Shown: positions 5,312-48,811 of the stretch, piece after piece | How positions within the stretch are numbered: the stretch's first letter is position 1 | Layout of the letters: every line of letters begins with the position of its first letter | Assembly (NCBI GenBank): GCA_965214835.1 | Contig: CBDCCK010000002.1 | Coordinates: forward strand, 480,001-544,000 | Reading direction: 5' to 3' | Source of the DNA: Nitrosopumilaceae archaeon | GTDB lineage: Archaea > Thermoproteota > Nitrososphaeria > Nitrososphaerales > Nitrosopumilaceae | DNA length: 64,000 bases | Program-made: the position numbers and the translations under genes | The notes under the pieces: model-generated | Seen by the model: only the letters and a program-made list of their open reading frames with translations | The model's database searches: none | What the model was told of the DNA's origin: nothing

Positions 5312-5325
5312 GGCGCGACATACCC
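5312..5325 (+). repeat. att-like core copy (GGCGCGACATACCC)
   Basis: 14-bp match to the 48768 motif, at the end of the conserved post-integrase tail. Base composition becomes AT-rich immediately after it. Confidence 0.7.
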
Positions 5326-5402
5326 ACGTATATTGAAGAATTTTTGCTCGTCACTATAAATAGGACCTGATGTTGTACAAGTACAACATAGGAAGAAACT
5401 AA

Positions 5403-6227
5403 ATGCAAAAAGTAGTTTTGATAACAGGCTGTTCAAGTGGAATAGGACTAGAAACTGCACTAGAATTAGCAGATCAAGATTACAAAGTTTATGCAACCAT
5501 GAGAGATGTATCAAAAAGTAAATTTGATGATGGAAACATCGAAACACTCTACCTGGATGTAGATTCAGAGCAATCAATTGAAAAAGCAGTTAAAACAATC
5601 CTGAGTAAAGAAAATCAGATTGATGTTTTGGTAAATAATGCAGGTTATGGGTTCATAGGATCTATAGAGGATACATCAATTGATGAGATTAAAATGCAGA
5701 TGGAAACAGACTTCATCGGTCCCATCAGAATGATAAAGAAAATCATCCCAACAATGAAAAAGCAGAAATCTGGAAAAATCATCAACATAAGCTCTGTTGC
5801 AGGACAGATGGGATTTGCATTAAGCTCAGCATATGTTTCATCCAAATTTGCACTAGAAGGGCTAACAGATTCACTACGACAGGAACTAGGATTGTTTGGA
5901 ATTTCGATATCATTAGTTGAGCCAGGAGTAGTTAAAACAAATTTTCATAGCAATATGAAGATGGCAAAGAGATCAAAAACTTCAGAGTATAAAGAGATGA
6001 CAGAAATTATGAGAAAACAAGCTGGATTACTTTTTGAGAAAGGAACAGAACCAACAGTGGTTGCAAAGAAAATATCTGAAATCATCAAATTAGAAAATCC
6101 GGAACCCCGATACGTAGTTGGGGAAGACGCCAAGCTTCTAATGGAAAATAAAAAACGAATGTCTGGAATAGAATTTGAAAAATCAGTTCAGGAAATTTTT
6201 AAGGAATTAATGGAATTCTCTACGTAG
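5403..6227 (+). CDS. Short-chain dehydrogenase/reductase
   Basis: TGCSSGIG, NNAG and YVSSK motifs. Confidence 0.92.
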   Translation: MQKVVLITGCSSGIGLETALELADQDYKVYATMRDVSKSKFDDGNIETLYLDVDSEQSIEKAVKTILSKENQIDVLVNNAGYGFIGSIEDTSIDEIKMQMETDFIGPIRMIKKIIPTMKKQKSGKIINISSVAGQMGFALSSAYVSSKFALEGLTDSLRQELGLFGISISLVEPGVVKTNFHSNMKMAKRSKTSEYKEMTEIMRKQAGLLFEKGTEPTVVAKKISEIIKLENPEPRYVVGEDAKLLMENKKRMSGIEFEKSVQEIFKELMEFST

Positions 6228-9200
6228 ATTGGTAGTATCCACAATCATTATTGGTGCAAGCTACACCGCCATCAAATTTTTCTAATTTTGAGTTACATTT
6301 TGGACAACTATCAACAGTTGAATTAGTTACCAATTTACCAAGGAAAGATCTTTTTTCCAGATTCTTACTTGGGGTTACTTGTTGTTGCATACGTACTTTG
6401 TACATGTCAATAAGATCTTTATCGGAAGAAACAATCTCTAAGAATCCCTCTTTAGAATAATACCATTCAGTGTACGGGATTACGTTTTCATCATAGAAGA
6501 TCTGAATGGCCTTTTCTTTTCCAAATTTCTCAATATTTGATTCAAATTTTACTGCCAAGTTGCCTTTAACTTTATCAGCGGTTTCATAATCCTCATCATC
6601 AAAAGGCTTTCTTACTTCACCGACATCAAGCAGAAACTCATGAAAATTGGATTCATCATATTTTTCGTCAAGTTTGTGCCCAATTTCGGAATACATCTTC
6701 AGCTGTCTGAAATTAGGAACTACCTGCAACAATTCCTTGAGATGGTAGAAATCCATTCTTATTTTGTAGGCAAAATATCTATCTTCAGGATCAAGATCAT
6801 AGATTTTGATGAATTTTCCAAAAGTTCCAAAGTTCTCCAGATAGTATTCCATCCCCAAATAAGACAACTGTCGCATTTCCTCAAAATGGGGAACATGTCC
6901 AAGATCATTTTTGATGCGTTCATAGTCTTGGAACAAATCATCGATTGTAACAGACGGAGAAATGTTTTTTATTTTACTAATTGTGTCTTTTACAATCGAG
7001 TCAAATTTTTCAAATGAGCCAAAGCATTCAATATATTCATCTACTCTGTAATCACCATATTCGTCAAGCATATCAGAGGTTACAGGAATTTTTACAAGGC
7101 TATACAATTCAAAATATTCTTCGTACAAAGTATCTTGTAGTTTGGGATCATTTAAAACAGACTCTCCTTTTGATTTTAGATAGTTATCATATCCGCCATA
7201 AAGACGATGCATGAGTGTTTTTAGCCCTGAGCTTGTGGATTGATCAAATTGAGAATATGTCGGAACGTGTCCGAATGCCAAATCTTTTAATTTGTAAAAA
7301 TGTTCATCGAGTTTTTTTGAAGATTGAATTTCGAGCTCTTTCTGTTTTTGTTCTTTCAGCTTTTGTCTTTCTTCATAGTCATGTAATTTTTCATTACAAA
7401 TCTTTTCAAATCTTTTGGGGTTTAGGATTGTTTCAAAAGTAATATCGCCATCAATTGCATCAATATGTTTAATCAAATTATTTCTATAGTAGACACCAAA
7501 AACACTATGATTTTTATTTATTAAAGATCTGGTCTTGTCAGGATTATACTTCAAAAGGGTGTTACAAGCATCTTCCATGTTTGCTTTTGGTAAAGAACCG
7601 TTTTGGGTTCCCAATGCATACAGTCCTAAGATCATTTGATAGTTGTCCTGAATATTGTTTTGATTTTCCAGATAGCCTACAAAAGGACATTTTTTTGTAG
7701 CTCCGCTTCTTAGTTGTTCATCGCGACATTTTCTACAATGGCTTTGGGGTTTTTGTTTTCCATTGGTAGTTAGATATCCAAAAATTTCCTCAATTTCGTT
7801 AATGCCAGCTTTAGTGTGACATCTTGGACATTCTTTTTCAAAAGATTCAGAATCTGCAGAAATGGGCTTATTTTCAGGCAATTCCGGTGTTGCTTTATCA
7901 TTTTCAGGCTCAATTTCTGAAGAAAATGCAGGCTCCATCTCTAATTTAAGGCAGGATTTACATTTAGAGGGAACATTTGGCCAATCTTTTGATTCAATAG
8001 CATCAATGAACTCATCCACGCCATCAATCTCAAAGAGTTTCTTTATCTCATCCATTCCTTTAGCAACAATTCCACATGAATCGCAGTAATGCTGGTAAAG
8101 ATTTTGTTCGGAAGGAATGTCTTGTTTTAATGATGGCTGTTCAGAGGTCCAAGGTTTCCAGTATTCGCTAAACACTTTCCAGCCTAGTTCAGTCAGACCC
8201 TTATCAAAATTTGAATAACCATAGCTTTCATGTAATTGGAAATTGTCATCAATGTCAACCAGTAACACGTCATCAGTACCTCCACTTTTTGTTCCACGAA
8301 GCCCTCTTCCAATAATTTGTGTATACATCAAAGTACTCCTAACAGGTCGCCCTACAAAGACGCAGTTAATGTTCGGAGCATCAAATCCGGTTGTTAGTAC
8401 ATCATAATTGCATAATACCTCCACATTGCCATTTCTGAATTGTTCAATTGCATCAATTCTCTGATCAATCCCCATTTTGGAATCAACATACCGTGCTTCA
8501 ATATTGTAAAGAATCTTTAATGCATTTGCAATATCCCTTGAGTGTTCAACACTGCACCCAAAAAACAAAATTTTATCTCGCTTATGTTTTGTTTTGATGT
8601 CGTGAATAGTGTCTAAAATCCGTTTATTGCGTATGTCGTCATTTCCAATTTGTCGGATTGTCTCTGGTTTGAATTCCTTAAATTTTTTCAAGTAATTCAG
8701 ATCATCAGTAGACAAATTAATTGAACCCGATTTTAATATCCAGTGATATACCTCACAGAGGACCTTACGCTTGATTAGTTTTTTGTAAAGGGACTTTTGC
8801 TTATCAGTATCATCGATTTCTGTTTCTTTGGTTTTTGGTAAAATCTTTATGTATACAGATGATTCAGACTTTTCACCTTCATTGTCAGTAACTTCTAATG
8901 TGATTTTGTATTCTCCTTCTTCAGGAAAGGGAAAATTGATGTTTCGTTCTTTTTCAAAAGTCCACTCGGTTTTTTCATCAGATACGTTTTTAGAATATAG
9001 GTCAAGGAATTTTTTTATCTTGGAAATTTTCCATCTGAAATCTTCATCTTTGATAAATCCGTCTCGATCATAAGATCGTTCCCCAATGATTCTAACATCA
9101 CTGTCAACTGTAGAATAGGTTTGGCAGTCAATTAGTGCATGAGGCTTGAAGTTTTCTTCGCCTTCATAGTAAGGAATTGTGGGGAAGTACAGTCTACCAT

Positions 9201-10374
9201 ATCGCCTCAACAGTGTCTGAGTCTCAACGTTGTTTCCAGAACCGCGGAATGGGGTTGCAGTTAAGCCGATTAAGATGATGCCCTTGGTAGAAATTTCCTG
9301 TTTTCTACGGTTGATGTTAAACCCCATTTTGCCCAATACTGCATTGTATGAATCAGCAATGGAGTGATGGGCCTCATCGATAACAATGCAGGAAGTCACA
9401 TCAGACAGTTGTTCGATTGTTTGGGGGTTTTTTCTAAATATTGCCATCAGAGACTGAATAGTGGATACAACTACGCTTCTTTCAGAATATTCTTCATCTA
9501 ATTTTTCAACAGATACAGGCATCTCTTTTTTGTCATTTCCCCAGTACCGGTGCAAGTGAAGAACAGTCCCACGTCGGCCTTTAGCTTGGAAAGTTGTTTT
9601 GAATGCGCTAACTGCCTGTTCACATAGTTCACGTGACTGTGCAATCCACAAAATAAATTTCGAATTTCTTTGTCGGTGATTTTTTGAAGGCTTTCCATCA
9701 TTTAGCCATTCAATCAATGTTTCAACAATCATCCTGGTTTTTCCTGAACCGGTAGGTACTGAAATTAGAATCCTTTTGTCATCAATTCTACCTTCTAACA
9801 TTTTTCTGATTTCCATGCCAGTAGAATGCTGATAGTCATACAGAGGATTGAGATCTAGTGTCGGTACAACATGTTCGTGTGGGTGAAATTCTTCACCCTT
9901 GCTATCTTTTTCTGCAACAGACGTAGGGAACCCAAGAGATATTGCTAGTTGTTTTACCCAGCTACCATTAGCAGGTAATTGTGAAATGTGTTTTATTTTG
10001 TCAGAAGATTTGTCGATATTATTAGCTTTAGTTTTGTAAAAAGATTTTGCAAGATCAATAATTTCATTTTCAGTTACCATGTTTTTTGATATGGCAGCAG
10101 TAAGAATATGCTCGAGGAAATCATGACGCTTGTATGTGTTATTTTCAATACTACGAAGGAATCTGGAACCTACACTATCATAAAGAATTTGAGCAAGTTT
10201 GTTATGATTGGAAATTTTCATGTCCTTGATTGAATAAATTTTCAAAATATTTGGGCTCATGTCAGGAATGACATTATTTTTCATTTCATCAATGGACCAT
10301 AATTCTTTGAATCGTTCAACACATTTTTCTTGTGCAGAGGTTGCCACACGAGGCTGAATTTCTTCATCTTCCAT
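6220..10374 (-). CDS. Large SF2 (DEAH) helicase with PKD-like insert, Zn ribbons and C-terminal repeats
   Basis: PTGSGKT, DEAHH, LTATP, TTGFDAP and QIIGRGLR motifs. GEYKITLEVTDNEG is PKD-like. Several CxxC pairs. Confidence 0.85.
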   Translation of the reverse strand: MEDEEIQPRVATSAQEKCVERFKELWSIDEMKNNVIPDMSPNILKIYSIKDMKISNHNKLAQILYDSVGSRFLRSIENNTYKRHDFLEHILTAAISKNMVTENEIIDLAKSFYKTKANNIDKSSDKIKHISQLPANGSWVKQLAISLGFPTSVAEKDSKGEEFHPHEHVVPTLDLNPLYDYQHSTGMEIRKMLEGRIDDKRILISVPTGSGKTRMIVETLIEWLNDGKPSKNHRQRNSKFILWIAQSRELCEQAVSAFKTTFQAKGRRGTVLHLHRYWGNDKKEMPVSVEKLDEEYSERSVVVSTIQSLMAIFRKNPQTIEQLSDVTSCIVIDEAHHSIADSYNAVLGKMGFNINRRKQEISTKGIILIGLTATPFRGSGNNVETQTLLRRYGRLYFPTIPYYEGEENFKPHALIDCQTYSTVDSDVRIIGERSYDRDGFIKDEDFRWKISKIKKFLDLYSKNVSDEKTEWTFEKERNINFPFPEEGEYKITLEVTDNEGEKSESSVYIKILPKTKETEIDDTDKQKSLYKKLIKRKVLCEVYHWILKSGSINLSTDDLNYLKKFKEFKPETIRQIGNDDIRNKRILDTIHDIKTKHKRDKILFFGCSVEHSRDIANALKILYNIEARYVDSKMGIDQRIDAIEQFRNGNVEVLCNYDVLTTGFDAPNINCVFVGRPVRSTLMYTQIIGRGLRGTKSGGTDDVLLVDIDDNFQLHESYGYSNFDKGLTELGWKVFSEYWKPWTSEQPSLKQDIPSEQNLYQHYCDSCGIVAKGMDEIKKLFEIDGVDEFIDAIESKDWPNVPSKCKSCLKLEMEPAFSSEIEPENDKATPELPENKPISADSESFEKECPRCHTKAGINEIEEIFGYLTTNGKQKPQSHCRKCRDEQLRSGATKKCPFVGYLENQNNIQDNYQMILGLYALGTQNGSLPKANMEDACNTLLKYNPDKTRSLINKNHSVFGVYYRNNLIKHIDAIDGDITFETILNPKRFEKICNEKLHDYEERQKLKEQKQKELEIQSSKKLDEHFYKLKDLAFGHVPTYSQFDQSTSSGLKTLMHRLYGGYDNYLKSKGESVLNDPKLQDTLYEEYFELYSLVKIPVTSDMLDEYGDYRVDEYIECFGSFEKFDSIVKDTISKIKNISPSVTIDDLFQDYERIKNDLGHVPHFEEMRQLSYLGMEYYLENFGTFGKFIKIYDLDPEDRYFAYKIRMDFYHLKELLQVVPNFRQLKMYSEIGHKLDEKYDESNFHEFLLDVGEVRKPFDDEDYETADKVKGNLAVKFESNIEKFGKEKAIQIFYDENVIPYTEWYYSKEGFLEIVSSDKDLIDMYKVRMQQQVTPSKNLEKRSFLGKLVTNSTVDSCPKCNSKLEKFDGGVACTNNDCGYYQST

Positions 10375-11120
10375 TAGATTTTCACTAGATACCCATTTTG
10401 AATTAATGATTTAACCAGTTTTTCGGCATTTTTAGCAGAGTTTCCTTTATGACGAATTCCAACTTCCACATTTCTAGAGATTCCCCTTCCAGTCAGATTT
10501 GCAGAAGTTATAAGCAATTCTCTTTCATCAATTATCATGATTTTCGCATGAAGGGAGCTCTTCTTAGAATCTTTAGGCTTATAGGAATACAGGTGGGGTA
10601 AGGTACCCTTGTTTTCCCACATTTTGTCTATTAACGGCACAAATTTTTCAGCACTATCAAATAGCAATTTAATTGAAATTCCTTTTTGAGAAGCATGCTC
10701 TAATGCTGCAAAAATTTCTTTTGTGTCATGTTCAATAGTATATCCAACAATAGTTATTGATTTTTTTGCAGAATCAATCATATCCAAAAGAGTGGTTTTT
10801 GTGTTGTCAGCATCTTCATTGAAAACAAAAGGGCTTGTCCATACGAGTGAATGACTTTTTTCGTTTGTATCTCGAAGTTTAAAGATTTCATTGATCAGAT
10901 CAATTGACAATAGAAGAGCATTAAGATCATCAAAACTCTCCAACGCATTTTTTACAATTGTTGTTTCATCACTCGTAAGATTTAGTTTTGAACGTAGTTC
11001 AAATAAATTTGTAGTTTTGTCGATTTTGTTTTCAGCAATTAGTTTTTTTAATTGTAGAATTTTTTTGCTTGACAATTCTAAAACCAAATTTTCGATGTTG
11101 GTTCTAACTGAGTCAGTCAT
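10374..11120 (-). CDS. drmC: PLD-family nuclease, DISARM DrmC-like
   Basis: HAKIMIID...SANLT...N HKD motif, directly downstream of a drmB-like gene. Confidence 0.8.
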   Translation of the reverse strand: MTDSVRTNIENLVLELSSKKILQLKKLIAENKIDKTTNLFELRSKLNLTSDETTIVKNALESFDDLNALLLSIDLINEIFKLRDTNEKSHSLVWTSPFVFNEDADNTKTTLLDMIDSAKKSITIVGYTIEHDTKEIFAALEHASQKGISIKLLFDSAEKFVPLIDKMWENKGTLPHLYSYKPKDSKKSSLHAKIMIIDERELLITSANLTGRGISRNVEVGIRHKGNSAKNAEKLVKSLIQNGYLVKI

Positions 11121-12940
11121 TTCATTTCAGAAAAAAATCCATAATCTTCATTGAATAAAAGCTGTCTATCCAAAAGACGATTGATGTTTTCACAGCTTGT
11201 TTCGGGCAATAGCGCACAACCATAACATGCAGAGCCATTCAATCGGGTGTGTAACGGCGCTTCAGTTTTTTCAATAGGGTTATCTTCAGCACACAAAGGA
11301 TCCCGTGAACAGAATTTTGACTTGTTAATTGCCGAACGTAAAATTTTTCCAAATTTTCTGGTTTCACCCTGTCTTACAAGCCCACCCAAGCTTCCATCAG
11401 ACGCAGGAGATGCAGTATACAACAGAATTCCGTTATATTTCTTACCCCGGTAAATTCTCTCTCTTATGGAGGATTCATTGTATCCGGACAAATGAGATAA
11501 TTCTCGAATCAATACATGAGAAAGAGTATGCAGTAACAAGTATCTGGGAAGCAATTCTTCATGTTTTTTCCAATTTCTGTTTTCTGCCCACTTGTGATAT
11601 GCCTGAATTATAGGCTTGCACCTGCTAACTATTTCAGGCTTGCTTTCCCATTCTCTAAGTTTTTCTTCATTCAAACTAAACAAAATTCCCTCACCCTTGT
11701 TTTCAATTGCGGGCAACCAATCGACTTTTCGTTTAGATAGTTTGCAAAAATGAATTTCTTTGTCTTCCTCTTGGGAATAAGGATCGGGAGCATTTCCCCG
11801 TGTGAATCCTCGAATTACTCTAATTTCAGTGATTCTTTTAATTTGTTTAAGGCTGCCAACGTAAGGAGTTAGAAATTCATCCAAATCCACATCATTAATG
11901 TCAAGAAGATCACCTCCGTCAAAATCTGCAGTGTCGCTATCCCTAAGATCAAAAAATTCTTTGTTCCTAATTTGTAATTCCGTGGGATTGCGTCCCAACA
12001 GGTTTTCGCCAGAAAATCTTTTTTTGATTTGTCTTGCTATTTCATCATTGGTGTATTTTCCTTCAGGTTGTCTTAGTGTGGAAAACAATGTTGCTTTTTC
12101 TGCAATTTCTTCAGGAGTGTTCATGTCCAGCATTCCTTTTAACTGATCTTTTTCATCTGAAATTTTTTTTTGGATTGGATGTAGCCATTCAGGAATGTAT
12201 AGTGCACTTATAGTAGACGGATAGTACAGGCTTGAAGATCTTATTTGAACTCCATGTACAGGAGTAGGAACGTGTTCGTCATTTTCACATTTTTCAGTTG
12301 TATTGCCTAACCAAGGTCTAGAACCACTACACGCACCTACAACTCCAGTTAGTCCCTGCTTGGATGTTGCGCCACTGCAGCTTCTTTCTAAACCACAGTC
12401 TTCACAACGGACAACATAATCTCCCAGACCCGCACTTATTCCTCTGGCATAAAATTTCAGTTTAGGATTAGGTTTATTGCATTGTTTTCCTTCTCCGCCT
12501 TCGCTATGTGCCCATTCAATCCATGGAAATTCATCAAGATGTCCTTTCTCACAGGTAATTGCAAATCTAGCAGGATACAATTCACCTCCACAGTTATCGC
12601 ATTTGAAGAAGCGTTTTCCATCAGCAGGGACATCCTTGTGCCTTTGAAGGTTATTGCATTTTGAACAAACGCCCCACTTTGGGAAGGATTTACAAGGAAT
12701 TGTTTGCATTTTTTCTACAGACGTTGGCATTAAGAATTTGTCAACTTTTTGTACCAATTCAAGATAGGGATGATGTAATGTTTTAGAGAATTTTTCAAAG
12801 TCACCCCAATAGTTTAATCCCATTACCAGTACAGAATCATGTTCAAGTTGTACAATGGAGCCAGGACCAAAAGTAGCTGTTAACTGACTAGGTCTTAGAC
12901 TACCTGGGCTTTCTCGGAATTTTTTTGGTTGGTCAAACAT
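11117..12940 (-). CDS. drmB: DUF1998-domain protein, DISARM DrmB-like
   Basis: RPSQL..TFGPG, CEKGHLDEFPW, LLHTLSH, GSLGGL, CSRDPLC and ACYGCALLPETSCE motifs. Confidence 0.88.
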   Translation of the reverse strand: MFDQPKKFRESPGSLRPSQLTATFGPGSIVQLEHDSVLVMGLNYWGDFEKFSKTLHHPYLELVQKVDKFLMPTSVEKMQTIPCKSFPKWGVCSKCNNLQRHKDVPADGKRFFKCDNCGGELYPARFAITCEKGHLDEFPWIEWAHSEGGEGKQCNKPNPKLKFYARGISAGLGDYVVRCEDCGLERSCSGATSKQGLTGVVGACSGSRPWLGNTTEKCENDEHVPTPVHGVQIRSSSLYYPSTISALYIPEWLHPIQKKISDEKDQLKGMLDMNTPEEIAEKATLFSTLRQPEGKYTNDEIARQIKKRFSGENLLGRNPTELQIRNKEFFDLRDSDTADFDGGDLLDINDVDLDEFLTPYVGSLKQIKRITEIRVIRGFTRGNAPDPYSQEEDKEIHFCKLSKRKVDWLPAIENKGEGILFSLNEEKLREWESKPEIVSRCKPIIQAYHKWAENRNWKKHEELLPRYLLLHTLSHVLIRELSHLSGYNESSIRERIYRGKKYNGILLYTASPASDGSLGGLVRQGETRKFGKILRSAINKSKFCSRDPLCAEDNPIEKTEAPLHTRLNGSACYGCALLPETSCENINRLLDRQLLFNEDYGFFSEMK

Positions 12941-15900: not shown

Positions 15901-16325
15901 GGAATAGAGAAGAGTTCAGAGTGAGAAGTTCTTTGATAACCGTTCTTAGACTTCTGGCCAACTTTAACTTCCTGAGAAGAATATGAACCATACTCAACAT
16001 CAGCTATAATTTCGGATGCATTACTATCAACAGAAAAAGTCAATCCAAACGAAGAAGGTTTTATGCCTGTATTGATTGTAAGTGGGTCATCAAATGAATT
16101 ATCCCCATCACCACCATCAATGACGGTATAATTTTGTTCATCATCTTCTCTGCTTATGGGAGTCTCTTTAGGAAATAATATTCCAGCAAGATATTCTTGT
16201 GTGGGATGTCCTAAAAGTACTTCATCCATGCCGCCTCTAGGTCCTACAATACTGACTTCAACTGCCTGTAAGACCCTAGAACGAACATCATTTTTTTTAT
16301 CCAATAAAGATGGTGTCAGATTCAT
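12933..16325 (-). CDS. drmA: SF2 helicase, DISARM DrmA-like
   Basis: WRPFQL, WFPTGGGKTEAY, RYTLRLLT, QDELHLI, SVGVDI and QASGRIGR motifs. Confidence 0.88.
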   Translation of the reverse strand: MNLTPSLLDKKNDVRSRVLQAVEVSIVGPRGGMDEVLLGHPTQEYLAGILFPKETPISREDDEQNYTVIDGGDGDNSFDDPLTINTGIKPSSFGLTFSVDSNASEIIADVEYGSYSSQEVKVGQKSKNGYQRTSHSELFSIPMVDSKKETIPFASKSDFKLQYSVKKHGKKFIVSIFVINDFDHRSQESVPAEACIFQPKIKIHSKQDGEKIFVNTSSDSDNSNKDLEEKIFDLMFRNKQSFSIGHGCSVMWNDKDIENNKVSKLETTFVPKTTLPKIEPMKSDLECLSMEKLFKVKDISEYSELIKPLVQQYRNWIKTELEDKLEQIPDSQKDAALNQIEECKNAVQRIQNGIDIISKDKIAGESFSFANRAMLLQRSYGFWAMENRKNGKVDGTGPKQLSGYWRPFQLVFALANIKSITDPKDEEREIADLLWFPTGGGKTEAYLGIIAFTLAHRRLRIENPKFRKYGTAVLMRYTLRLLTLQQFQRAATLMCACEIIRRIDEKKWGAEPFSVGLWVGLNTTPNSLEGESSAEEAIEKAKQGYKPKEHNPIQLISCPWCGDKLYDESNPYLLKSTYKIGGLPKQLRIFCSNSNCSFYDKGNNDHNIPVLVVDEDIYKRCPSLIIGTVDKFAQIAWKWQTGAIFGRVNKQCEKHGFVLDGITPHCGKHKDYKTKLFSDHGAEFLEPPELIIQDELHLISGPLGTLTGLYETAIDILCTNEDGVKPKIITSTATTRKAREQIKDLFNREQSNIFPPQGFDFGNSFFANEVPLSEDPGKLYVGICSTAKSGLTILGGVSAAILQKTRSLKTNQEENGFTDSDIDPYHTLVSYFNSIRELGGADKMYDDSVPGYIKRIYNNYDKDTKKESFQSAFKEELTSRVDSGNIPKILQSLDVKLGSNQKPVDLLLSTNMLSVGVDISRLGVMIINGQPKNHSEYIQASGRIGRDSPGLIFTIYNYLKPRDLSHYENFHYYHTTFHKNVEPVSLTPFAPRARDKALFGIIVALVRLLEKNMSKDDKAGTFDKKKFDIEKLLKNIRNELAERVDSVDHGERESTLEDFDKLITEWHESAIQYKPLRYRKNPYKREENMNFLLGSVESYYEGLVPIPNSLRDAEQSTLLRYVSSIEEKDV

Positions 16326-16348
16326 AAATAAAAATTAGATCATGAGGC

Positions 16349-16470
16349 CAGCCTTCCCAGAAGTACCGCATCAAATCATCCCAAGCTCGAAACAATTCAG
16401 ATGAGGTTTGCCTGCAGATCCGCATGTCGCCTCCTGCACCGCCACGAATCGGTTACTTCTAGGAAGACTG
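16349..16470. mobile_element. MITE family B (about 121 bp, TIR CAGTCTTCCCAGAAGTA)
   Basis: TIRs plus 5-bp target duplication GAGGC. Sits 23 bp upstream of the drmA start. Confidence 0.9.
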
Positions 16471-22387: not shown

Positions 22388-22388
22388 T

Positions 22389-37637: not shown

Positions 37638-37653
37638 GATTGTAAGCATGATC

Positions 37654-37962: not shown

Positions 37963-38095
37963 AGTAAAAACTAATGTCAACCATTTCAAAAATTCTAAAC
38001 TTGGATAATCTATGCTGACCTCAATATTTATGATCCTATTTATAAGAGCCCAGTCATCACAGTGGACTATTGATTGGTTTTGGTGAGATGGCCAT

Positions 38096-40741: not shown

Positions 40742-41094
40742 GAATATACCACCACACACTGGAGAGAAGCAAGAGTCGAAAGTCAATCATCTTTAAGGTA
40801 CACGTGGATGACAGGTTTGGCAAACAGAGGATAAACCAGGCCTTGCTGTCCGGTTGGCGCGCCAAACTTGCAGAAAAGCGTCTGTTTTTTGACAAAGATG
40901 ACTGGGACGACGACATTGCTCGAAAGTTTGTTGGAATTATGGTTCTAAAGATTGCCCGTGATGAGTATCAAGGGACACATTTTCTCAATAACGTAGATGC
41001 TAAAAGCAACATGGAGATTCATTTCTGGGCATACCAGTTTCTGTCAAACAAAAAGGCATCACACGCGTGGAAGATCCTAAACGGTGACGTCTAG
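40738..41094 (+). CDS. Small protein in the DUF3780 position of the restriction-like operon
   Basis: Translationally coupled on both sides. EIHFW motif. Confidence 0.7.
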   Translation: MRIYHHTLERSKSRKSIIFKVHVDDRFGKQRINQALLSGWRAKLAEKRLFFDKDDWDDDIARKFVGIMVLKIARDEYQGTHFLNNVDAKSNMEIHFWAYQFLSNKKASHAWKILNGDV

Positions 41095-43715
41095 TGAAAC
41101 ATGCAGTAATAGAAGATTCCAACGTTGAGGTTATGGAGTTTTTTAACCGGGTTGGTAGGGCGTCAAAAAACGAGAAGCAGGCCACAATAAGCCTCAACCA
41201 GATGATGTGCTGGTGGACCCGCAAACCACTTGTGGTAGGAAAGGCTATGGTACTAGCAAGCCTGTTTGATAAGGTATCTGATGCGGAACAGTTTTTGGGG
41301 CTTGACTCACCAAAGCCATACGATCACATTCCCGATACTACCATGTTTACAAAAAAACTTGGAGTTGACCCAAAAACAATTAGCATATTAGATCCGTTTG
41401 CAGGTTCAGGCAATCTAATGTTTCCCGCCGTACAACTTGGCCTTGATGTCACTGCATCTGACTACAACCCGTTGGCATGGCTGATAGAAAAATGCGCGCT
41501 TGAACATCCTGCAAAACACGGTCGTAATTTACATGAGGATTTTGTCAAATATGCCAACAAAGCATTGGAAGAGACTAAAAAAACAGTGGGAAGGTATTTT
41601 CAAGATTCCTACCTCACATACCTGTGGTGTTGGTGCATAAGATGTCCATACTGTTCACAGAGGTTTCCTCTTACAAACCACATGTATGTTGTGAAAACTG
41701 AAAAAAGAAAGATAGGCATACGGATAATTCCAAAAGACAAGGATTTTAGCACAGAGATAGTTGATAACATATCTAAAGAAGATGGTGACAAATATACGCA
41801 GAAAAGAGGCAAGGCTGTTTGCATATCATGTACCAACACAATACAATACGATGTGATTACAAAGGACATTACGGAACATAAGGATCGCGAGATAATTGTG
41901 ATACAGGTTCAAAAGAAAAAAGGCAGGGATTATGTTATTCCAACAGAAAAAGACAAAAAGACATATCGCGATGCCATACAACACTTTAAGACAAAATATG
42001 ATGAATTTGAAAAGGAAAATCTAATACCTCATGAAAATATACATCATGATCCAAGGAATCCTCTAAAAAATTATGGTATAACTTGTTGGGATCAGTACTT
42101 TGATGAACGTCAGATGCTTGTGTTATGTACCTTTATGAAGAACATCAAAAAAACATGTGATGGGATTCCAGATGAGGTATACCGTAAAGTAATTGCCACG
42201 TATCTTTCATTTATTCTTGCAAAACGTATAGATCATGCGGGGTTTGGTGTTATTTGGGATGCCACAAGAGAAAATCCGTCACCTGCATTGTCCATGCGCC
42301 AACCTCGCTTATCATATAACTTTGCCGAGTCAAACCCATTTGAAAAAATTAGGGGAAGTATTAGTAATACAATCAAATCCGTATCTAAGGCACTAAAGTT
42401 TACTGTACGACTACAAACACCCGCCGTATGCGAAAACAGATCAGTCACGGTAGCGTGTGACAAACAGTATGATCTCATAATCACGGATCCGCCCTATGGT
42501 GATGATGTACAATATGGCGAGCTGTCCGAATTCTTCTATGTCTGGGCATATCGCATACTGTCTGAATACTATGATCTGCCGACGCGCATTCCACTAGATG
42601 AGGATTATTGTGAGAGCCGAGGACGTTTTAGCAGCAAGCAGAAGGCAAAAGAATTCTTTGGTGCCGGACTCAAAAAATCATTTAGGGCAATAAATGAAAA
42701 ACTCAAAGACGATGGGTTGGCAGTAATCCTTTTTGCCCATTCAAGCACGGAGGCCTGGAACCAATTTCTCGCGGCAATACAGGAGGCAAGACTGCGGATA
42801 GTATCAAGCTATGCAATACATACAGAAATGTCAACAAACGTAATTGCACAGAACAAGGCATCATTTCTGTCCTCCATCATGGTAACATGCAGAAAGATAA
42901 CCGGAGAATCCGTACAGTACTTTGAGGATCTGATACCTGAGATAGACGATGGCGTGAAAAAGATACTGGACGGCATTTCAGAGCAAAGACTTTTGACATT
43001 GTCCATAACCGACCTGCTGGTCATGGTGTATGGAAAAGTACTAGAGGTATCAACCCAGCACACGGTTCTGAAGAGCTATGCAAGAGACTTTACACCAGAC
43101 TTTGAGATGCTCATAAAGGATGCACGTAGTACGATCATTAAGCAGCTTGTAGTCAAGCTATTAAAAAAACAGCCGGATATCGTGGGATCCCGAATGGCGT
43201 TTTACATAATCAACAAGGTGTTTAACAGCGGTAAAGTTTCAGCAGACGATGCGCTGAAGATAGCACAGGCATACAACACAAGCCTTGTCGAGCTAAGTAG
43301 AGAAGGAGTGATAACACAAAACAAGGGAGTAGCACGCCTTCAAAGCCTAAAGCAAGACATGTACTATGAGCCAGAAGCAATTGATCCGCAGAACCTGCAC
43401 CAGCAGTTGTGCTATCTTGCATCACACGAATCAGACATGGCCGAGTTGCTGCATCACGACAACATACTGGAAAACGATCTAAAGCCCATTGTGAGTCTCC
43501 TGCTCAAAAACTACAACATGAAGAGAAATCAGGGATACAACCCAACTCCTGATGACAATGAGGAGATCCGGATACTGACCACCATGGCAGATCATATGGG
43601 GATAGCAGTAGAGCAGGATTCCCACTACAGAGCAAAGGGGGCCAGAACCAAAAAGGCTAGAACCAGAAAGAGCAGGGGGGACGAGCGCCAGTCTCGTTTG
43701 GAGAAATGGAAGTAG
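41094..43715 (+). CDS. DUF1156-family adenine DNA methyltransferase
   Basis: WWTRKPL, DPFAGSG, CxxC ribbons, TDPPYGD and FAH motifs. Confidence 0.9.
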   Translation: MKHAVIEDSNVEVMEFFNRVGRASKNEKQATISLNQMMCWWTRKPLVVGKAMVLASLFDKVSDAEQFLGLDSPKPYDHIPDTTMFTKKLGVDPKTISILDPFAGSGNLMFPAVQLGLDVTASDYNPLAWLIEKCALEHPAKHGRNLHEDFVKYANKALEETKKTVGRYFQDSYLTYLWCWCIRCPYCSQRFPLTNHMYVVKTEKRKIGIRIIPKDKDFSTEIVDNISKEDGDKYTQKRGKAVCISCTNTIQYDVITKDITEHKDREIIVIQVQKKKGRDYVIPTEKDKKTYRDAIQHFKTKYDEFEKENLIPHENIHHDPRNPLKNYGITCWDQYFDERQMLVLCTFMKNIKKTCDGIPDEVYRKVIATYLSFILAKRIDHAGFGVIWDATRENPSPALSMRQPRLSYNFAESNPFEKIRGSISNTIKSVSKALKFTVRLQTPAVCENRSVTVACDKQYDLIITDPPYGDDVQYGELSEFFYVWAYRILSEYYDLPTRIPLDEDYCESRGRFSSKQKAKEFFGAGLKKSFRAINEKLKDDGLAVILFAHSSTEAWNQFLAAIQEARLRIVSSYAIHTEMSTNVIAQNKASFLSSIMVTCRKITGESVQYFEDLIPEIDDGVKKILDGISEQRLLTLSITDLLVMVYGKVLEVSTQHTVLKSYARDFTPDFEMLIKDARSTIIKQLVVKLLKKQPDIVGSRMAFYIINKVFNSGKVSADDALKIAQAYNTSLVELSREGVITQNKGVARLQSLKQDMYYEPEAIDPQNLHQQLCYLASHESDMAELLHHDNILENDLKPIVSLLLKNYNMKRNQGYNPTPDDNEEIRILTTMADHMGIAVEQDSHYRAKGARTKKARTRKSRGDERQSRLEKWK

Positions 43716-46700
43716 GCAGCAGTGTGAGAACCCCGGACGGCACGGGTACAATCACCAGCATGGATACCCGATCGGCCAAGGTTCAGATTGATTCAGGTTC
43801 CAAGTGGTATGAGCTTGATACCCTGGACATGATATATGACCCGATTGCAAAGATGTGCAAAAAGCAGATCGATGACTGCCTCCAGTTTGCTACGGGGATT
43901 GATGCGCACCGCCTCTACACAGAATACCGGTTCAACCCGTATGTCCTTGCAGCATCAACCAAGATCAAGATATTCCCCCACCAGATAAACGAGGTGATGT
44001 GGGGGCTTGAGAACCCCAGAATAATGATTGCCGACGAGGTAGGGCTTGGAAAAACGATAATTGCAGCGTTGATCGTGTCGGAGCTCCGCGCACGTGGCAC
44101 TGCAAAGCGCCTTCTTTTTGTGGTTCCAAAGTCCCTGCAGATAAAATGGAAGATTGAGCTTGAGCAAAGATTTGACATTCCAACCAAGATACTAGATTCA
44201 GAATATGTGAAGAACAATCCCGAACCGTTTGAAGGCGAGTTTTCATTTGTGGCATCCATGGACTATCTAAAACAGGAACACATCATATCCAAGCTCAGCG
44301 AGGAGCTTGATGTGGTGGTAGTAGACGAGGCTCACAAAATGAAAAAGGGCACGTCCAGGCTGAAGCTGGGAGAGCATCTTGCGTCAAAAACAGACACCAT
44401 GATACTTCTTACTGCAACCCCGCACGACGGCCGCGACGAGGACTTTATGGCCCGCATGAACATGCTGGACAGCTTTGTATCCGACATACGAACCGCCTCG
44501 TACCTGTGGACGCGTACCACAAAGGAGGACGTGGTGGACATCGAAGGAAAGAAGGTGTTTCCTGACAGGACAAGCAAGACAGTAGACATTGCACTACTAA
44601 ACAAGGAGCGTGACGTGATCAAGCTGCTGGAGGGGTACTTTGATCACATACAGTCAAACGTAAAGACGCCACGTGAGGAGAGCATGATCAGATTCCTCAG
44701 GCACATATACCGAAAAAGGGCCAGCTCGTCACTGCACTCACTGGAAATATCCCTAAGACGCAGAATTGACAAGCTTGGCACAGCAGATACCGACATAGAA
44801 AGCGCACTGACCAGGCTGGACTATGACTATAGCGAGGACATAGAATTTGAAGACATTGAAGGGTATGAGGGATTCACCATATCCGACGTGGATCGGGAAA
44901 AGGAGATGTTGACAGAAATCACAAAGCATCTGGAACAGCTTGACTGTGATTCCAAGCTGGATCATTTGAAGCGGTTCATCAAGACGCTAAAGGAGGACAG
45001 GCCGGATGCAAAACTGGTACTCTTTACAGAATACCGCGACACGCTGGACTATCTTGCGGCATCTCTTGATTATGAGATTGGAAAGATAGACGGCACCATG
45101 TCGATAACAGAGCGCCAAGACGAGCTTGAGAAATTCAAAAAATCAGACGGATACGAAGTCATGCTGTGCACAGATGCGGCGGGGGAGGGAATAGACATGC
45201 AGTTTTGCAACGTGGAGATAAACTATGATCTCCCGTGGAACCCGAACAGGCTTGAGCAAAGGATGGGCAGAATACACAGGATAGGACAGGATCAGAATGT
45301 CTTTTATTACAATTTTGTGGTCGATTCCAAATCAAGCATTGACGGATACATAATGCAAAAACTGCTTGAAAAAATAGAGCAGATAAAGGCGGCGATGGGC
45401 GACAAGGTGTACGATGTGGTGGGCTCGCTCATAGGATCAGAGGAATTTGGGCGGTACTATGACGAGCTGCGCAATATACCAAGGGACCAATGGGAACCGA
45501 AAATCGCTGTCCTGATGTCCGCAATAGAGGCCATGCGGTACGATGTTTTGGAGAAGAGGAAGATGCTGCTAGAGGGAAACAGGCTTGACTCTACAAAGCT
45601 TGAAGACATACAAAAGATACGCGATACTGCCATAGTAATAGACGAGGTAAAGCGGTTTTTGCAGGTGTTTGTAGAGACAAACGGGGGGAGGATGGATCGT
45701 ATTGATTCCGACAAGCAGCTATACAGCATACGCCTTTCTGAGAGGCATTCAAAGGAGCTTGGATTAGGTGAGATCGTTGGGACCTTTGACGGCACAACTG
45801 CAGAAAAAGAATCATACGAGTACCTTGCGCTTGGAAACCACAGCATAGAAAAGATACTAAGAAAGGCAGCATCAGATCATGTTGCATCACTTGGGCACGA
45901 GAGCCAGGAAGGAGTATTGTGCATATACAAGATAACCATAACCGACGGCCAGGCAAAACAAAGGGATTCCAAGATAATTGCGATATTTGAGCAATCCGAC
46001 GGCGTCATATATCAGGTTGATGAGAGAAGCGTGTGGACATACAAACAGTCAGATAGAGAGGTCAACATAGATTTTGCCACAAGTGCAAGCAAGCGAATAG
46101 AGACGATTGCATCCAACATGGCACAGAAACAAAAAGAGTCCATAGATCGCAAATTAAGAGAGATCAAAAAGAAGACCAAAACTGCGCGTAATGGATACTA
46201 CGCAAAAAAGATAAGTGATATAAAAGTGAGAATGGGTGAGCTGCAACAAAACGACGACGGGCCTCATGTTGAAAGAATAATAGACGAGCGCAAAAGAAAA
46301 ATAAAGACGCTAGAAAAGCAGGCGGATATCGAGTACCAGAAACTGGACAGGCAATTTAATACCGCCACTAGGATAGACCTGATTGGAATTGCACAGGTGA
46401 CTGCAGATGATGGCGCAGACATTCACATACGCATAGACGAAGCTGGAATGAAGGCAGTCCTCGAATCGGAAAGAAAAAGGGCACCAGACGAGCATGCCGT
46501 AAAACAGCTTGAGGACTGCTCCAAGAAAAACTGCGGGTATGACGTAGTATCATTTGACAGAAAAATAGAGGTAAAATCGCACAAAAAGTCCGGCAGTATA
46601 ATGCTGACCGACCACGAATGGAAAACGGCAGAAAGGCTGCAGGATGAATACTGGCTTTACGTGGTAGAACACGTATTTGAAAATCCGCGCATAACGGCGA

Positions 46701-46798
46701 TACAAAACCCGGCATCAAAATTCCATGGTCACATAGAAAAAATTCCATCCAAGCAGTTCAGATGGGTGATCCATGACTGGAAAGAGAGATCCATCTAG
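43706..46798 (+). CDS. SNF2-family helicase with a C-terminal DUF3883/NOV nuclease domain
   Basis: PHQ, ADEVGLGKT, DEAH, PWNPNRLEQRMGR, GYDV...IEVKS...LTDHEW motifs. Confidence 0.92.
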   Translation: MEVGSSVRTPDGTGTITSMDTRSAKVQIDSGSKWYELDTLDMIYDPIAKMCKKQIDDCLQFATGIDAHRLYTEYRFNPYVLAASTKIKIFPHQINEVMWGLENPRIMIADEVGLGKTIIAALIVSELRARGTAKRLLFVVPKSLQIKWKIELEQRFDIPTKILDSEYVKNNPEPFEGEFSFVASMDYLKQEHIISKLSEELDVVVVDEAHKMKKGTSRLKLGEHLASKTDTMILLTATPHDGRDEDFMARMNMLDSFVSDIRTASYLWTRTTKEDVVDIEGKKVFPDRTSKTVDIALLNKERDVIKLLEGYFDHIQSNVKTPREESMIRFLRHIYRKRASSSLHSLEISLRRRIDKLGTADTDIESALTRLDYDYSEDIEFEDIEGYEGFTISDVDREKEMLTEITKHLEQLDCDSKLDHLKRFIKTLKEDRPDAKLVLFTEYRDTLDYLAASLDYEIGKIDGTMSITERQDELEKFKKSDGYEVMLCTDAAGEGIDMQFCNVEINYDLPWNPNRLEQRMGRIHRIGQDQNVFYYNFVVDSKSSIDGYIMQKLLEKIEQIKAAMGDKVYDVVGSLIGSEEFGRYYDELRNIPRDQWEPKIAVLMSAIEAMRYDVLEKRKMLLEGNRLDSTKLEDIQKIRDTAIVIDEVKRFLQVFVETNGGRMDRIDSDKQLYSIRLSERHSKELGLGEIVGTFDGTTAEKESYEYLALGNHSIEKILRKAASDHVASLGHESQEGVLCIYKITITDGQAKQRDSKIIAIFEQSDGVIYQVDERSVWTYKQSDREVNIDFATSASKRIETIASNMAQKQKESIDRKLREIKKKTKTARNGYYAKKISDIKVRMGELQQNDDGPHVERIIDERKRKIKTLEKQADIEYQKLDRQFNTATRIDLIGIAQVTADDGADIHIRIDEAGMKAVLESERKRAPDEHAVKQLEDCSKKNCGYDVVSFDRKIEVKSHKKSGSIMLTDHEWKTAERLQDEYWLYVVEHVFENPRITAIQNPASKFHGHIEKIPSKQFRWVIHDWKERSI

Positions 46799-47029
46799 AG
46801 TCAGGTTTTGATCCGGTAACAAAATGTGCTACTGTTATCCAACTCTGCGGATCATCTGGATTATTTTTAAAGTACTTTTCAAACGATAAAAAGATTCGAT
46901 CATCCGTTTATTTTTTGGATTTTCTGCTGTATAGAAATAGCAAAAGACGACATGGATCCTCGTAGGAAAGACTCGGGTTAATTACAGATCACTTCTCTGC
47001 ACATGAGAGTGTTTTTCACATTGGTTAGG

Positions 47030-47320
47030 TCACTTGATTCTGCTACCAAACACTCTCAGCATCGCATCAAGGCCGGCAATCCTGCCTTCCAGATACTTTA
47101 TCCTTTCATCCGACGGCAGGTATCTTGCATGCTCTTGCACGCCCTTGAGATACCTGGCAAACGACCTGTCAAACGTCTTGTCCGCCATTTTGATCCCCTT
47201 GCACAGGTTCTGCAGGTTCAGGCCATCAAGCCCGGACTTTTTTCCCAGGAACAGCTGGGACTTGCCTGCCAGAAAATACAGATACTCCGTCCCGTGGTTT
47301 GTCCTGACTACGATCCCCAT
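47030..47320 (-). CDS. Small integrase-partner protein, divergent from the integrase
   Basis: G.EYLYF.AGK...F/Y.G motif shared with 63579..63863. Confidence 0.7.
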   Translation of the reverse strand: MGIVVRTNHGTEYLYFLAGKSQLFLGKKSGLDGLNLQNLCKGIKMADKTFDRSFARYLKGVQEHARYLPSDERIKYLEGRIAGLDAMLRVFGSRIK

Positions 47321-47360
47321 GCCTGTGTATTGTTAGCGTACAAACCATTAAATAAGCGTA

Positions 47361-47381
47361 TGTGTATTCTAAGAATACACA
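47361..47381. promoter_or_regulatory. Palindromic operator-like site
   Basis: TGTGTATTCT-A-AGAATACACA, a perfect 10-bp inverted repeat between divergent genes. Confidence 0.55.
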
Positions 47382-47464
47382 AAATGACACGCTTAAAACG
47401 CCCCAAAGGACAAATAGCTCCCAAACCATATCAAGGCAATGAAGTCGCCGAGAGGCTGACCGAT

Positions 47465-48667
47465 ATGGGAAAAAACAAACTTGCTACAAGAAAAGACACT
47501 GTCAAAAAACAGGCAAAGGCAACGCGACTGCTGGCACATCCTGACGTGCGGAGGTGGTACGACAACCTTGCGCGCGGGAGCGTGCTTACGGCAAACAACT
47601 CGCTGCGATGCATCGACAAGTTCTGCGAGACACACGGCATGTCTCCTACCGAGCTGGCAGATCTCGGAGTCAGGGATCTGAGGGCAGTCACGGACCTCAT
47701 CGAGGATCACGTCACCATGATGGAGTCCGAGAACTACTCCTCCGGATACGTGACCCTGACCGTCCAGATCATAAAGTCCTGGCTGAGGCACTCTGACGTG
47801 GTGATCAAGCGCAGGATAAAGGTGACCCCCAACAGGAACTAGAAGACAATCCAGGGCGAGCGCGTTCCAAACGCGCAGGAGATGTCCGAGATATACGGCC
47901 GTGCGGGACTGCGGGAGTCAGTCATAATATCTCTGATGGGCAAGTCCGGGCTGAGGCCGGAGACCATAGGCAACCACGACGGCACGGACGGATTGTGCAT
48001 GAGCGATCTTCCGGACGTGGTAATACACCAGGGAACGGCAAAGTGCATAAGGACGCCGTGCATGGTGACTGTAAGGGGCACGCTGTCAAAGGCACGCCAC
48101 CAGTACTTTACGTTCATGACTGCGTCTGCAACCAGGAACCTCACGGCATACCTCAACGACAGGCTCGCCCACGGGGAGCCGCTGCACGGGAGCTCGCCGG
48201 TGGTGGCGCCGGATCACATCCACAAGACGAATCGGGGCCGCAACAGGGACAAGGAATTCCTCATTACATCGCAGGTAAGCCACCTGGTGCGCAGGACGTT
48301 CAGGCCGAGGTTCACGTGGAGGCCCTACGTGCTGCGCGCGTACTTTGACACGCAGCTGCTGATCGCCGAGTCCAGGGGAAGGATTGCGCATGACTTTCGC
48401 GTCTTCCTTATGGGGCACAAGGGAAGCATGGAGGCGCGATACACCACGAACAAGGGCGTGCTGCCCGACGTCCTGCTAGACGAGATGCGGGAAGCATTCG
48501 GACGATCCGAGGAGCACCTGGACCAGGCAGAAGCCGATCCAATCCTGGAACAAAAGCAGGAGGCGCTGCGGATGATAGAGGGGGCCACGCCGGATCAGCT
48601 CGGGCGCGTGCTAGAGGCACTGCAGACGGTGCCGGCAATACGCGCCAGGGCAGATCGTGGCAGATAG
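47465..48667 (+). pseudogene. Full-length tyrosine integrase copy 3 with a single nonsense mutation
   Basis: TAG at 47840 where copy 1 has CAG. Otherwise continuous in frame. Confidence 0.9.
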
Positions 48668-48811
48668 CGAAGACGCGGAGAGGCTCATTGCCGACGACGG
48701 ATGCACGTTTGTCGGCGTCCTGCCAAACGGCAGGGTGGTTCTTCAAAGGCATATGTGAGGCCGCAGCGGCGCGACATACCCTTATATTTTGGACTCGGAG
48801 GTCGTTAGTAA

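Follow-up and report, generated by a model that had tools for sequence, protein, structure and literature searches.

How did several unrelated sets of defence genes come to lie in a row, separated by copies of one short repeat, in front of a gene for a ribosomal protein? We addressed this question in a 64,000-nucleotide (nt) stretch of genome G000, from a Nitrosopumilaceae archaeon (GenBank assembly GCA_965214835.1, contig CBDCCK010000002.1; C2:480001-544000). This stretch is called the window, and negative positions lie to its left. The genome encodes an archaeal AmoA (amoA), and the host is therefore taken to be an ammonia-oxidising archaeon. The ribosomal protein gene is rps3ae (48812..49423, + strand; Pfam Ribosomal_S3Ae, E = 4e-59), a host gene with a TTG start codon, and the island in front of it comprises the approximately 55.5 kb between serS, which ends at C2:473270 (window -6730), and rps3ae, starting about 6.7 kb left of the window. 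A first-pass annotation, made from the letters of the window, had described a tandem stack of defence-carrying integrative elements beginning at 5312; the island proved to be larger, as it begins at the serS stop codon, and it holds four integrase remnants rather than one. We consider it likely that the island was built by tandem, site-specific accretion of elements with a divergent XerA-like integrase, with later loss of integrase genes and invasion by insertion sequences (IS) and miniature inverted-repeat transposable elements (MITEs).

The attachment core and its native place before rps3ae

The repeat is a 20-nt motif, GGCGCGACATACCCTTATAT, with exact copies at 30430..30449 and 48768..48787, a copy with two mismatches at 19247..19266 and a copy with three at 5312..5331. 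In 100 shuffled sequences, the expected number of matches at up to three mismatches was 0.00, and in the whole 3.22-Mb genome the motif occurred, at the same tolerance, at these four places only. A further copy at 21800 has five mismatches over the 20-mer, counted by eye; here, 21799..21812 reads GCATACCCTTATAC and keeps 12 of the 14 right-hand bases. The 12-mer CATACCCTTATA was found genome-wide only at 21800, 30437 and 48775, and the right-hand 14 nt, searched on both strands with up to two mismatches, gave 10 occurrences in the genome, five of which lie inside the island; module borders account for four of these, all on the + strand, and the fifth, at 47363 on the - strand, is probably a chance match. 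The five cores (5312, 19247, 21799, 30430 and 48768) are all on the + strand and bound the modules as direct repeats. The motif search and the shuffles thus reproduced the copies reported before, perfect at 30430 and 48768 and partial at 5312, 19247 and 21800, and the genome-wide scatter of the motif that had been named as grounds for rejecting an attachment (att) site was not seen, the 20-mer being restricted to four island places.

The flanks of the cores were of two types, which had been proposed to represent right and left ends of integrated elements, and both were borne out by alignment. The cores at 5312 and 48768 are each preceded by the same integrase 3' end and a tail of about 100 nt (4829-5325 versus 48282-48781, 92.8% identity over 503 nt), and those at 21800 and 30430 each precede a common block, described earlier as roughly 170 bp long (21800-21971 versus 30437-30611, 88.6% over 175 nt), to which the right flank of the core at 19247 aligns more weakly. 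The post-integrase tail (48668..48767, +) is an arm of the element with the short hairpins GCCGAC/GTCGGC and CCTGCC/GGCAGG, and it is conserved in copies at 5212-5311 and -1453..-1353. The left arm (30450..30620, +) starts with the inverted repeat TATGCGGCACC/GGCGCCGCATA and is 99% identical to a sequence at 2.384 Mb in G387, a genome from a different genus; a conserved left arm likewise follows the core at 21799..21812 (21813-21971). The core at 5312 joins an integrase tail to the left end of the first module, the core at 19247 is abutted by an IS-derived end at TGGCG, and the exact copies at 30430 and 48768 stand as left and right att sites (attL and attR) of the last module, with 48774-48787 being the native rps3ae promoter region. 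Folding of the tail, core and leader as RNA gave a z-score of -0.99, which is not distinctive.

Next to rps3ae, the core ends at 48787 and 24 nt separate it from the TTG at 48812, in agreement with the earlier description, which had also pointed out the CTTATAT included in the core. The right 14 nt of the 20-mer, ACATACCCTTATAT, are native host sequence in front of rps3ae and are conserved across the host family, and the left 6 nt, GGCGCG, are variable in relatives. GGCGCG belongs to the element's arm, and only the last 14 nt are native; the proposal of the 20-mer as an att core held for its last 14 nt and not for GGCGCG. Searching 48700-49900 in 40 relatives gave matches in 25, and most of the best alignments listed begin at window 48768-48782, i.e., at the core. 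In 160 nt upstream of rps3ae, inspected by eye in 19 relatives, CTTATAT stood at about the same distance before a conserved TTG start in 17, CATACCCTTATAT was present in 10, and in most of them the serS stop codon lay a few bases upstream of the motif. Relatives without the island therefore do carry the core as native sequence before rps3ae, with the right 14 nt in place, and the absence of the motif there, which had been put forward as a refutation, was not observed.

The gap between serS and rps3ae was measured throughout the family. rps3ae was found in 137 of the 141 family genomes searched, and both genes in 134 genomes, a tally that takes in G000 and three unpublished genomes (G094, G108 and G109). 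The gap was at most 100 nt in 104 genomes, 101-500 nt in 9, 501-5000 nt in 7 and more than 5 kb in 5 (G000, 55.5 kb; G004, 18.7 kb; G087, 7.7 kb; G003, 115 kb; G070, 1.8 Mb); the two genes were on separate contigs in 5, on opposite strands in 3 and in reversed order in 1. This distribution argues that the ancestral state was serS followed directly by a spacer of about 45 nt, and such a spacer must hold the whole rps3ae promoter. The TATA-like box lies 25-30 nt before the start codon, and its position and conservation suggest that it serves as the rps3ae promoter; the distance from box to start would fit a leaderless or near-leaderless transcript. G000 and all 19 relatives inspected use TTG as the start codon of rps3ae, with the TATA-like box about 25 nt ahead of it; for a leaderless transcript, such conservation of a start codon other than AUG would be unusual. 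No Rfam match was obtained for 48500-49000 at E up to 1, and a literature search on Nitrosopumilus transcription start sites found no paper. No tRNA gene was found in the 64-kb window, and the core overlaps the rps3ae promoter region, so that the claim of a non-tRNA att site holds.

The junction reads GGC GCGACATA CCCTTA TATGCGGC ACC, in which the two 8-nt stretches form imperfect inverted repeats (6/8, read by eye) around a 6-nt centre. Inverted 8-nt stretches around a 6-nt centre are the usual layout of tyrosine-recombinase core sites.

Module borders and exchange between genera

The cores divide the island into four modules: A (5332..19246), B (19267..21798, +), C (21813..30429, +) and D (30450-48767). 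The borders were compared with G387, in which about 35 kb lie between serS and rps3ae. Although the host genes of G000 and G387 are only 72% (serS region) and 75% (rps3ae) identical at the nucleotide level, the islands share blocks at -814..223 (98.5%), 1257-3410 (99.6%), 4829-5324 (96.6%) and 19279-21812 (98.8%), and 37639-49423 is colinear at 92.6%. Identity remains at 93-100% through the integrase gene and tail and then falls to about 76% within 100 nt, at the core; the drop marks the right end of the mobile DNA. At G387 position 1528798, the integrase tail is followed by GGCGCGACATACCTTTATAC and then by TTACATCCACTGTGGCTCC, i.e., this junction corresponds to the left flank of the core at 5312, one core, and the right flank of the core at 19247. 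What G387 is missing is exactly module A, the 13.9-kb DISARM module bounded by two cores in G000. Module B matches G387:1528946-1531475 (98.8%), and its colinearity ends at 21812, which is the end of the next core. These breakpoints are what site-specific gain or loss of single modules would leave behind; module-level gain or loss is read here from one comparison, G000 versus G387, in which either direction is possible.

An occupant unrelated to these modules was found at the same promoter in a third genus. In G087, a 7.7-kb element lies between serS and rps3ae and is flanked by a 13-nt direct repeat, AACTTATATTTTG, one copy directly after the serS stop codon and the other 24 nt before the rps3ae start, and the unoccupied site sequence is seen in relatives of this genome. 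Its integrase gene adjoins the rps3ae side on the opposite strand (Pfam Phage_integrase, E = 3e-14), and the protein shows 23% identity to the G000-type family, with an hhalign probability of 99.2; the element also carries a DNA methylase. G087 is a clean, independent single-element case at this promoter, with the crossover segment apparently displaced a few bases to the right. Together with the breakpoints against G387, it supports the stack of integrative elements described for the window in the first place.

In G002, from the same genus as G000, a 36-nt remnant of the tail is followed by TGGCG, MITE1, TGGCG, the core and rps3ae, and the MITE1 abutting the core at 30430 in G000 is this same MITE1. 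It fits that module D entered an attR of the G002 type, which would place the newest element nearest rps3ae.

The shared stretches also bear on where the stacking took place. The composite island could have been assembled elsewhere and acquired largely en bloc, its internal cores being relics of accretion in a donor lineage. Such transfer of whole tandem composites is known in bacteria (PMC5704250), and it would account for G000 and G387, from different genera, sharing long colinear stretches that include internal cores. However, the shared DNA shows two levels of divergence, with 98.5-99.6% identity in -814..5324 and module B but 92.6% in the block of Hma and integrase genes, and its content differs in between. 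These two classes (~99% and ~93%) argue for more than one transfer; moreover, the two genomes differ in the DISARM module exactly at a core. We therefore hold acquisition en bloc to be possible but rather unlikely, and it would alter the place of accretion, not the mechanism.

Integrase, cargo and later rearrangement

The integrase gene next to rps3ae (47465..48667, +) has 400 codons and an in-frame TAG at 47840-47842 (codon 126), where both the G387 ortholog (96% amino acid (aa) identity, no stop) and the paralogous copy at 1495-2652 encode Gln. The latter copy (1495..2652, +) lacks about 30 N-terminal residues, having been cut by an IS630-type MITE (1399-1531), and has an altered C-terminal end; it shows 95% nucleotide identity to 47553-48626 and 92% aa identity over residues 1-252 of 261. 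C-terminal fragments are present at 4829..5311 (+; coding to 5211, then the tail of about 100 nt; 91% aa identity over residues 133-261) and, also with the tail, at -1839..-1353. No integrase match was found between 5332 and 47464. With none of the four island copies intact, the array can probably no longer move, unless it is served in trans by a paralog.

Two other readings of this gene were examined. A self-splitting integrase of the SSV/pTN3 type was rejected, as the core starts 100 nt after the stop codon (48667 versus 48768) and lies outside the integrase open reading frame (ORF); SSV-type splitting was likewise rejected as the source of the fragments at 4829 and -1839, which end at an IS or at another block and not at cores. 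Pyrrolysine decoding of the in-frame TAG was set aside in view of the ammonia-oxidising host (amoA) and the Gln in orthologs; pyrrolysine use is not known from ammonia-oxidising archaea.

Pfam Phage_integrase (PF00589) was not matched by the window copies, even with E relaxed to 10; they gave only a weak NCBIfam match to XerA (E = 2.4e-4; 20.8 bits against a cut-off of 220), and nothing usable in PHROGs or in single-sequence PDB searches. With an intact 403-aa paralog as the query, 1470 representative clusters were retrieved at E up to 0.001. Alignment of 42 homologs showed R163, K208 and Y325 to be invariant and R285, R290 and H317 to be conserved in at least 90%, and the window integrase retains the catalytic motifs GLRPE, LSKARH, RPYVLRAYF, MGHKG and ARYTT. 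The profile of the 42 homologs matched archaeal XerA structures (4a8e, E = 3e-9; 5hxy, E = 4e-6), and PF00589 was matched by 14 of the 42, so the Pfam miss of the window copies reflects divergence. The predicted structure of the neighbouring intact paralog (predicted local distance difference test score, pLDDT, 88.7) gave Foldseek matches that, among those listed and including 16 at E up to 0.001, were tyrosine recombinases: XerA (5hxy, 1e-6; 4a8e), IntI4, the integrases of phage Brujita and Tn1549, Cre, XerH and lambda Int. By profile, fold and catalytic residues, the enzyme is a divergent XerA-like tyrosine recombinase. Among 401 family genomes, unpublished ones included, 112 have homologs at E up to 1e-20, and DNA of the rps3ae-type tail plus core was found only in G000 and G387, with the remnant in G002; 10 of the 401 genomes had any match.

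The cargo was assigned with Pfam and PADLOC, by which the contents of the four modules are mutually unrelated. Module A carries an SDR gene (5403-6227), a 1384-aa helicase with HNH repeats (6220-10374) and, in adjacent genes spanning 10374-16325, the DISARM trio DrmC (10374-11120, PADLOC E = 3e-34), DrmB (11117-12940, E = 9e-74) and DrmA (12933-16325, E = 3e-265), followed by an unassigned ORF (16511-17353), MITEs and a degenerate IS (17995-19158). The helicase matched generic helicase and restriction-enzyme models only, and no match to a DISARM methyltransferase (DrmMI/DrmMII) or to DrmD/DrmE was obtained in the module with Pfam and PADLOC; hence, "DISARM-like" is an apt label. Module B, 2.5 kb in length, comprises two MITE1 copies, an ORF (19712-20263), an HD-domain protein (20247-21563; Pfam HD and HD_assoc_2) and MITE2. 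Module C (8.6 kb) contains an IS66 transposase (22492-24069), a GHKL ATPase (24506-26422) and an AbiEii toxin gene (26416-28937) that is cut in two by an IS (transposase 27027-28274), its N-terminal part (26416-26943) and C-terminal part (28329-28937) covering positions 3-149 and 171-323 of the PADLOC profile, as well as further unassigned ORFs and a MITE1 (30308-30429).

The cargo of module D (30621..47464) includes IS630 (30832-31818), Fic/Doc (32290-32916), IS110 (33380-34516), an IetS-like S8 protease (34278-36860; PADLOC IetS, E = 4e-28), a nuclease-like ORF (36857-37519), HmaC (DUF499; 38096-40741, E = 5e-70), a small ORF (40738-41094), HmaB (a DUF1156 methylase; 41094-43715, E = 1e-57) and HmaA (a helicase; 43706-46798, E = 5e-87). 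The Hma system (38096-46798) is thus complete in PADLOC terms, with helicase, methylase and ATPase. Contigs of one public run join 33303 to 34498 (TA..TA), and some strains are therefore taken to lack the IS110 that overlaps the start of the S8 protease ORF. Of the cargo named in the first-pass annotation, the DISARM-like, HD, GHKL-AbiE, Doc, S8-nuclease and DUF499 genes were recovered by Pfam and PADLOC; the label YwgA, given to 19712-20263, was not, as this ORF had no Pfam match at E up to 0.1 apart from noise. In the leftmost part of the island (-6409..-5408), an HNH endonuclease ORF and glycosyltransferase-like ORFs are present, and a second Fic/Doc fragment lies at -631..-275; there is no att core between the leftmost cargo and serS.

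At least seven transposase ORFs and two MITE families were counted in the window's part of the island. Two IS elements of G000 are missing from the shared blocks in G387. The first (body about 224-1256; DDE_Tnp_1 transposase at 241..1032, +, Pfam E = 3.4e-18) is an insertion relative to G387, which is colinear across -814..223 and 1257..3410 without it. The second (3410-4828; DDE_Tnp_1 transposase at 3459..4742, -, E = 2e-11) sits between the block 2862-3409 and an integrase fragment, and is missing at the same junction in G387 and in a copy at -2381..-1353, where block and fragment are duplicated. MITE1 is about 122 nt long with the terminal inverted repeats CAGTCTTCCCAGAAGTA, and copies lie at 16349-16470, 17391-17620, 19324-19570, 30308-30429 and -2800..-2680; MITE2, with the ends CAGCTAAGTGAAA, is found at 21683-21791 and -2916..-2806, and also in G387, G002 and G004.

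Three transposable-element ends abut att cores at the same TGGCG (window 19243-19251 and 30425-30434, and in G002); two belong to MITE1, one in G000 and one in G002, and the third to a mini-element of G000 that derives from an IS. At 19247 and in G002, a copy of TGGCG stands on each side, which suggests a transposon target site immediately next to the recombination site.

To the right of rps3ae, a second defence island starts 8.5 kb downstream (57300 to about 65990). It contains a dCTP-deaminase-type defence gene (57658-59154; PADLOC E = 3.5e-148), a type III restriction-modification pair (59271-63193) and the intact integrase paralog (64094-65287), which has 74% aa identity and a similar tail. 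A search of 57.3-65.4 kb for its att sites gave no convincing direct repeat, the best exact repeat being 9 nt long; conserved host flank sets in only about 700 nt past the integrase gene, where a gene on the opposite strand has its 3' end. Between the two islands, host genes at 50277-56910 encode a LarE-like ATP pyrophosphatase, LarC (Ni_insertion) and a LarB-like AIR carboxylase beside a malate/lactate dehydrogenase, and look like a nickel-pincer cofactor gene set.

Assembly of the island and its relation to known systems

The order of events, the exact crossover, the promoter function and the past activity of the integrase were deduced from sequence comparison, and the accretion that we favour would run as follows. 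The chromosomal site would be the short serS-rps3ae spacer, with the TATA-like box and the nearest upstream bases overlapped by the exchanged core, ACATACCCTTATAT. An element's site, made up of tail, core and left arm, would recombine with this spacer; as the element carries the same 14 nt, the sequence before rps3ae would be restored, and a second copy of the core would be left at the element's far end. Later elements would integrate into a resident core, giving the succession module, core, module, core. Most modules would then lose their integrase genes, and IS and MITEs would invade, several of them at the TGGCG beside the core. The end product would be integrase-less, core-bounded blocks with DISARM-like, HD, GHKL-AbiE, Doc, IetS-like and Hma genes.

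Several observations weigh against this scheme. Modules A, B and C hold no integrase remnant, so that they would have been complete elements only by supposition, and other routes of capture are possible. The centre between the putative half-sites varies among copies (CCCTTA, CCATTA and CCCACG, and CCTTTA in G387), which is unexpected for fresh conservative recombination, and we place the crossover only provisionally. No att core follows the serS stop codon in G000, G387 or G004, and the leftmost attL is not recognisable. The 18.7-kb insert of G004, from the same genus as G000 (G004:C1:871444-890156), carries type III restriction-modification genes, a P-domain protein and IS66/IS110/rve transposases, and has neither an integrase of the G000-type family nor a second core; not every occupant of the site is therefore tied to this mechanism. 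In G387, the left arm and Fic/Doc block of module D lie about 830 kb from the rps3ae island (G387:C1:2382504-2384047), 99% identical, without IS630 and joined to ...GGCAAATAT instead of a core. This distant locus may be a secondary integration site or the result of rearrangement, and since part of module D sits elsewhere in G387, IS/MITE rearrangement has also moved blocks, and not all module borders were made by an integrase. Finally, contigs of four runs, examined over 29400-49300, contained no circle or empty-site joint, the joints present being IS/MITE variants or the paralogous integrase copy (30778 joined to 47553); this check used assembled contigs only and has no bearing either way on excision.

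A bolder reading of the same data would have the integrase clade use the BRE/TATA core of the rps3ae promoter, with the 45-nt spacer serving as an assembly line for defence islands across genera, modules being exchanged in trans and each core firing as a promoter. We regard this full combination as improbable.

The first-pass annotation had called the array integron-like and had suggested that each regenerated att might act as a promoter; an active platform of this kind, in which core-bounded modules move in trans as cassettes and each core drives the cargo behind it, is in our view very unlikely. It would explain why modules A, B and C are bounded by cores yet have no integrases and why module A is present or absent exactly at the core; an intact paralog with 74% aa identity is available 16 kb away, and the TATA-like box is kept in each core. 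However, the rps3ae-type integrase copies in G000 are all broken and the internal cores are degenerate. Each module is a block of several genes, 2.5-18 kb long, with upstream regions of its own, and the distance from an internal core to the following ORF start is not constant; the core at 30430 is followed by an IS that lies on the other strand. By definition, the cassettes of an integron lack promoters, are bounded by attC and are expressed from one common promoter next to intI. The island resembles integrons in its tyrosine recombinase (IntI4, 2a3v, is among the fold matches) and in its ordered units separated by recombination sites, but these units look like decayed copies of complete mobile elements, with several genes on both strands, and there are neither promoterless single-gene cassettes nor a common promoter beside the integrase gene. 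The att core is the sole repeat common to the borders, and no folded attC-type sites were seen there, although no search aimed at attC was made. Neither the integron label nor the general promoter role found support.

Segmental duplication and IS/MITE rearrangement of one original element, which would draw on the many transposase ORFs and two MITE families, the duplicated block 2862-3409 with its integrase fragment and the MITEs abutting three cores, is scarcely credible as a substitute for repeated integration, given that the copies at 5312 and 19247 share the core alone (13 identical nt) and not their flanks, that the cargo of the four modules is unrelated, and that the same promoter is used by the unrelated G087 element with clean 13-nt direct repeats.

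Site-specific accretion has close precedents. In streptococcal integrative and conjugative or mobilizable elements (ICE/IME) and cis-mobilizable elements (CIMEs), accretion proceeds by integration, decay to an integrase-less element bounded by attL and attR, and arrival of a newcomer in the att next to the target gene (PMC5704250). The rps3ae island shares these three steps and the tandem of att-bounded modules: direct core repeats bound its modules, some modules lack an integrase and have both att sites, and genomes differ by a module at att. It differs in having an archaeal host and in its target, which is a promoter and not a gene 3' end or a tRNA gene. No conjugation genes were seen in the island.

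Among thaumarchaeal integrated elements, 15 of 68 occupy intergenic sites and tandem integration at one site is reported, according to a survey (Krupovic et al. 2019, PMC6563490). The elements described there are alike in being borne by tyrosine integrases, in their sizes of a few to tens of kb, in their short att repeats and restriction-modification or defence cargo, and in the phylum of their hosts (archaeal amoA in the present case). The rps3ae island differs from them in that the target is the core promoter of a ribosomal protein gene, at least four modules plus remnants are stacked, and most modules have no integrase. The supplement files searched for that survey contain neither seryl, S3Ae, S3a or ribosomal nor the core sequences; as the tables do not say which genes adjoin intergenic sites, the rps3ae site may have been seen before. 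For archaea, tandem arrays, att sites between genes and the disappearance of integrase genes once an element has integrated have all been described (PMC6563490, PMC8371274). The pTN3-like integrases of Thermococcales target the 5' half of a tRNA gene and are alike in that integration takes place at the 5' side of a host gene, with the upstream sequence supplied by the element (PMC8371274). They differ in being "suicidal", with att inside the integrase ORF and a tRNA target; in the rps3ae island, 100 nt separate the integrase stop codon from the core that follows it, and a protein-gene promoter is the target.

The island is best classed with cryptic integrated elements that accrete by site-specific integration, an established route to genomic islands, and not with integrons. 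Three points are new relative to the literature found: a ribosomal-protein core promoter is the target, and this of two or more divergent integrases; the stack is deep; and there is evidence of exchange between genera.

Bacterial defence islands sit at integration hotspots. The rps3ae site is alike in that varied defence systems occupy one place, with content differing among G000, G387, G004 and G087; it differs in its link to one particular clade of archaeal integrases and to a defined att core of 14 nt. As this clade is missed by Pfam, such islands would be missed by integrase-based island finders. The locus raises the question of whether integration alters rps3ae expression. Near-identical modules in hosts whose own genes are 72-76% identical point to recent transfer of defence modules between genera of ammonia oxidisers. 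For the assembly of archaeal defence islands, the comparison offers a view in which one conserved promoter would act as a landing pad, elements would arrive serially, and integrase loss and IS/MITE activity would reshape what has accumulated. The promoter of an essential ribosomal protein gene, a sequence unable to drift, would here play the role that tRNA genes play elsewhere.

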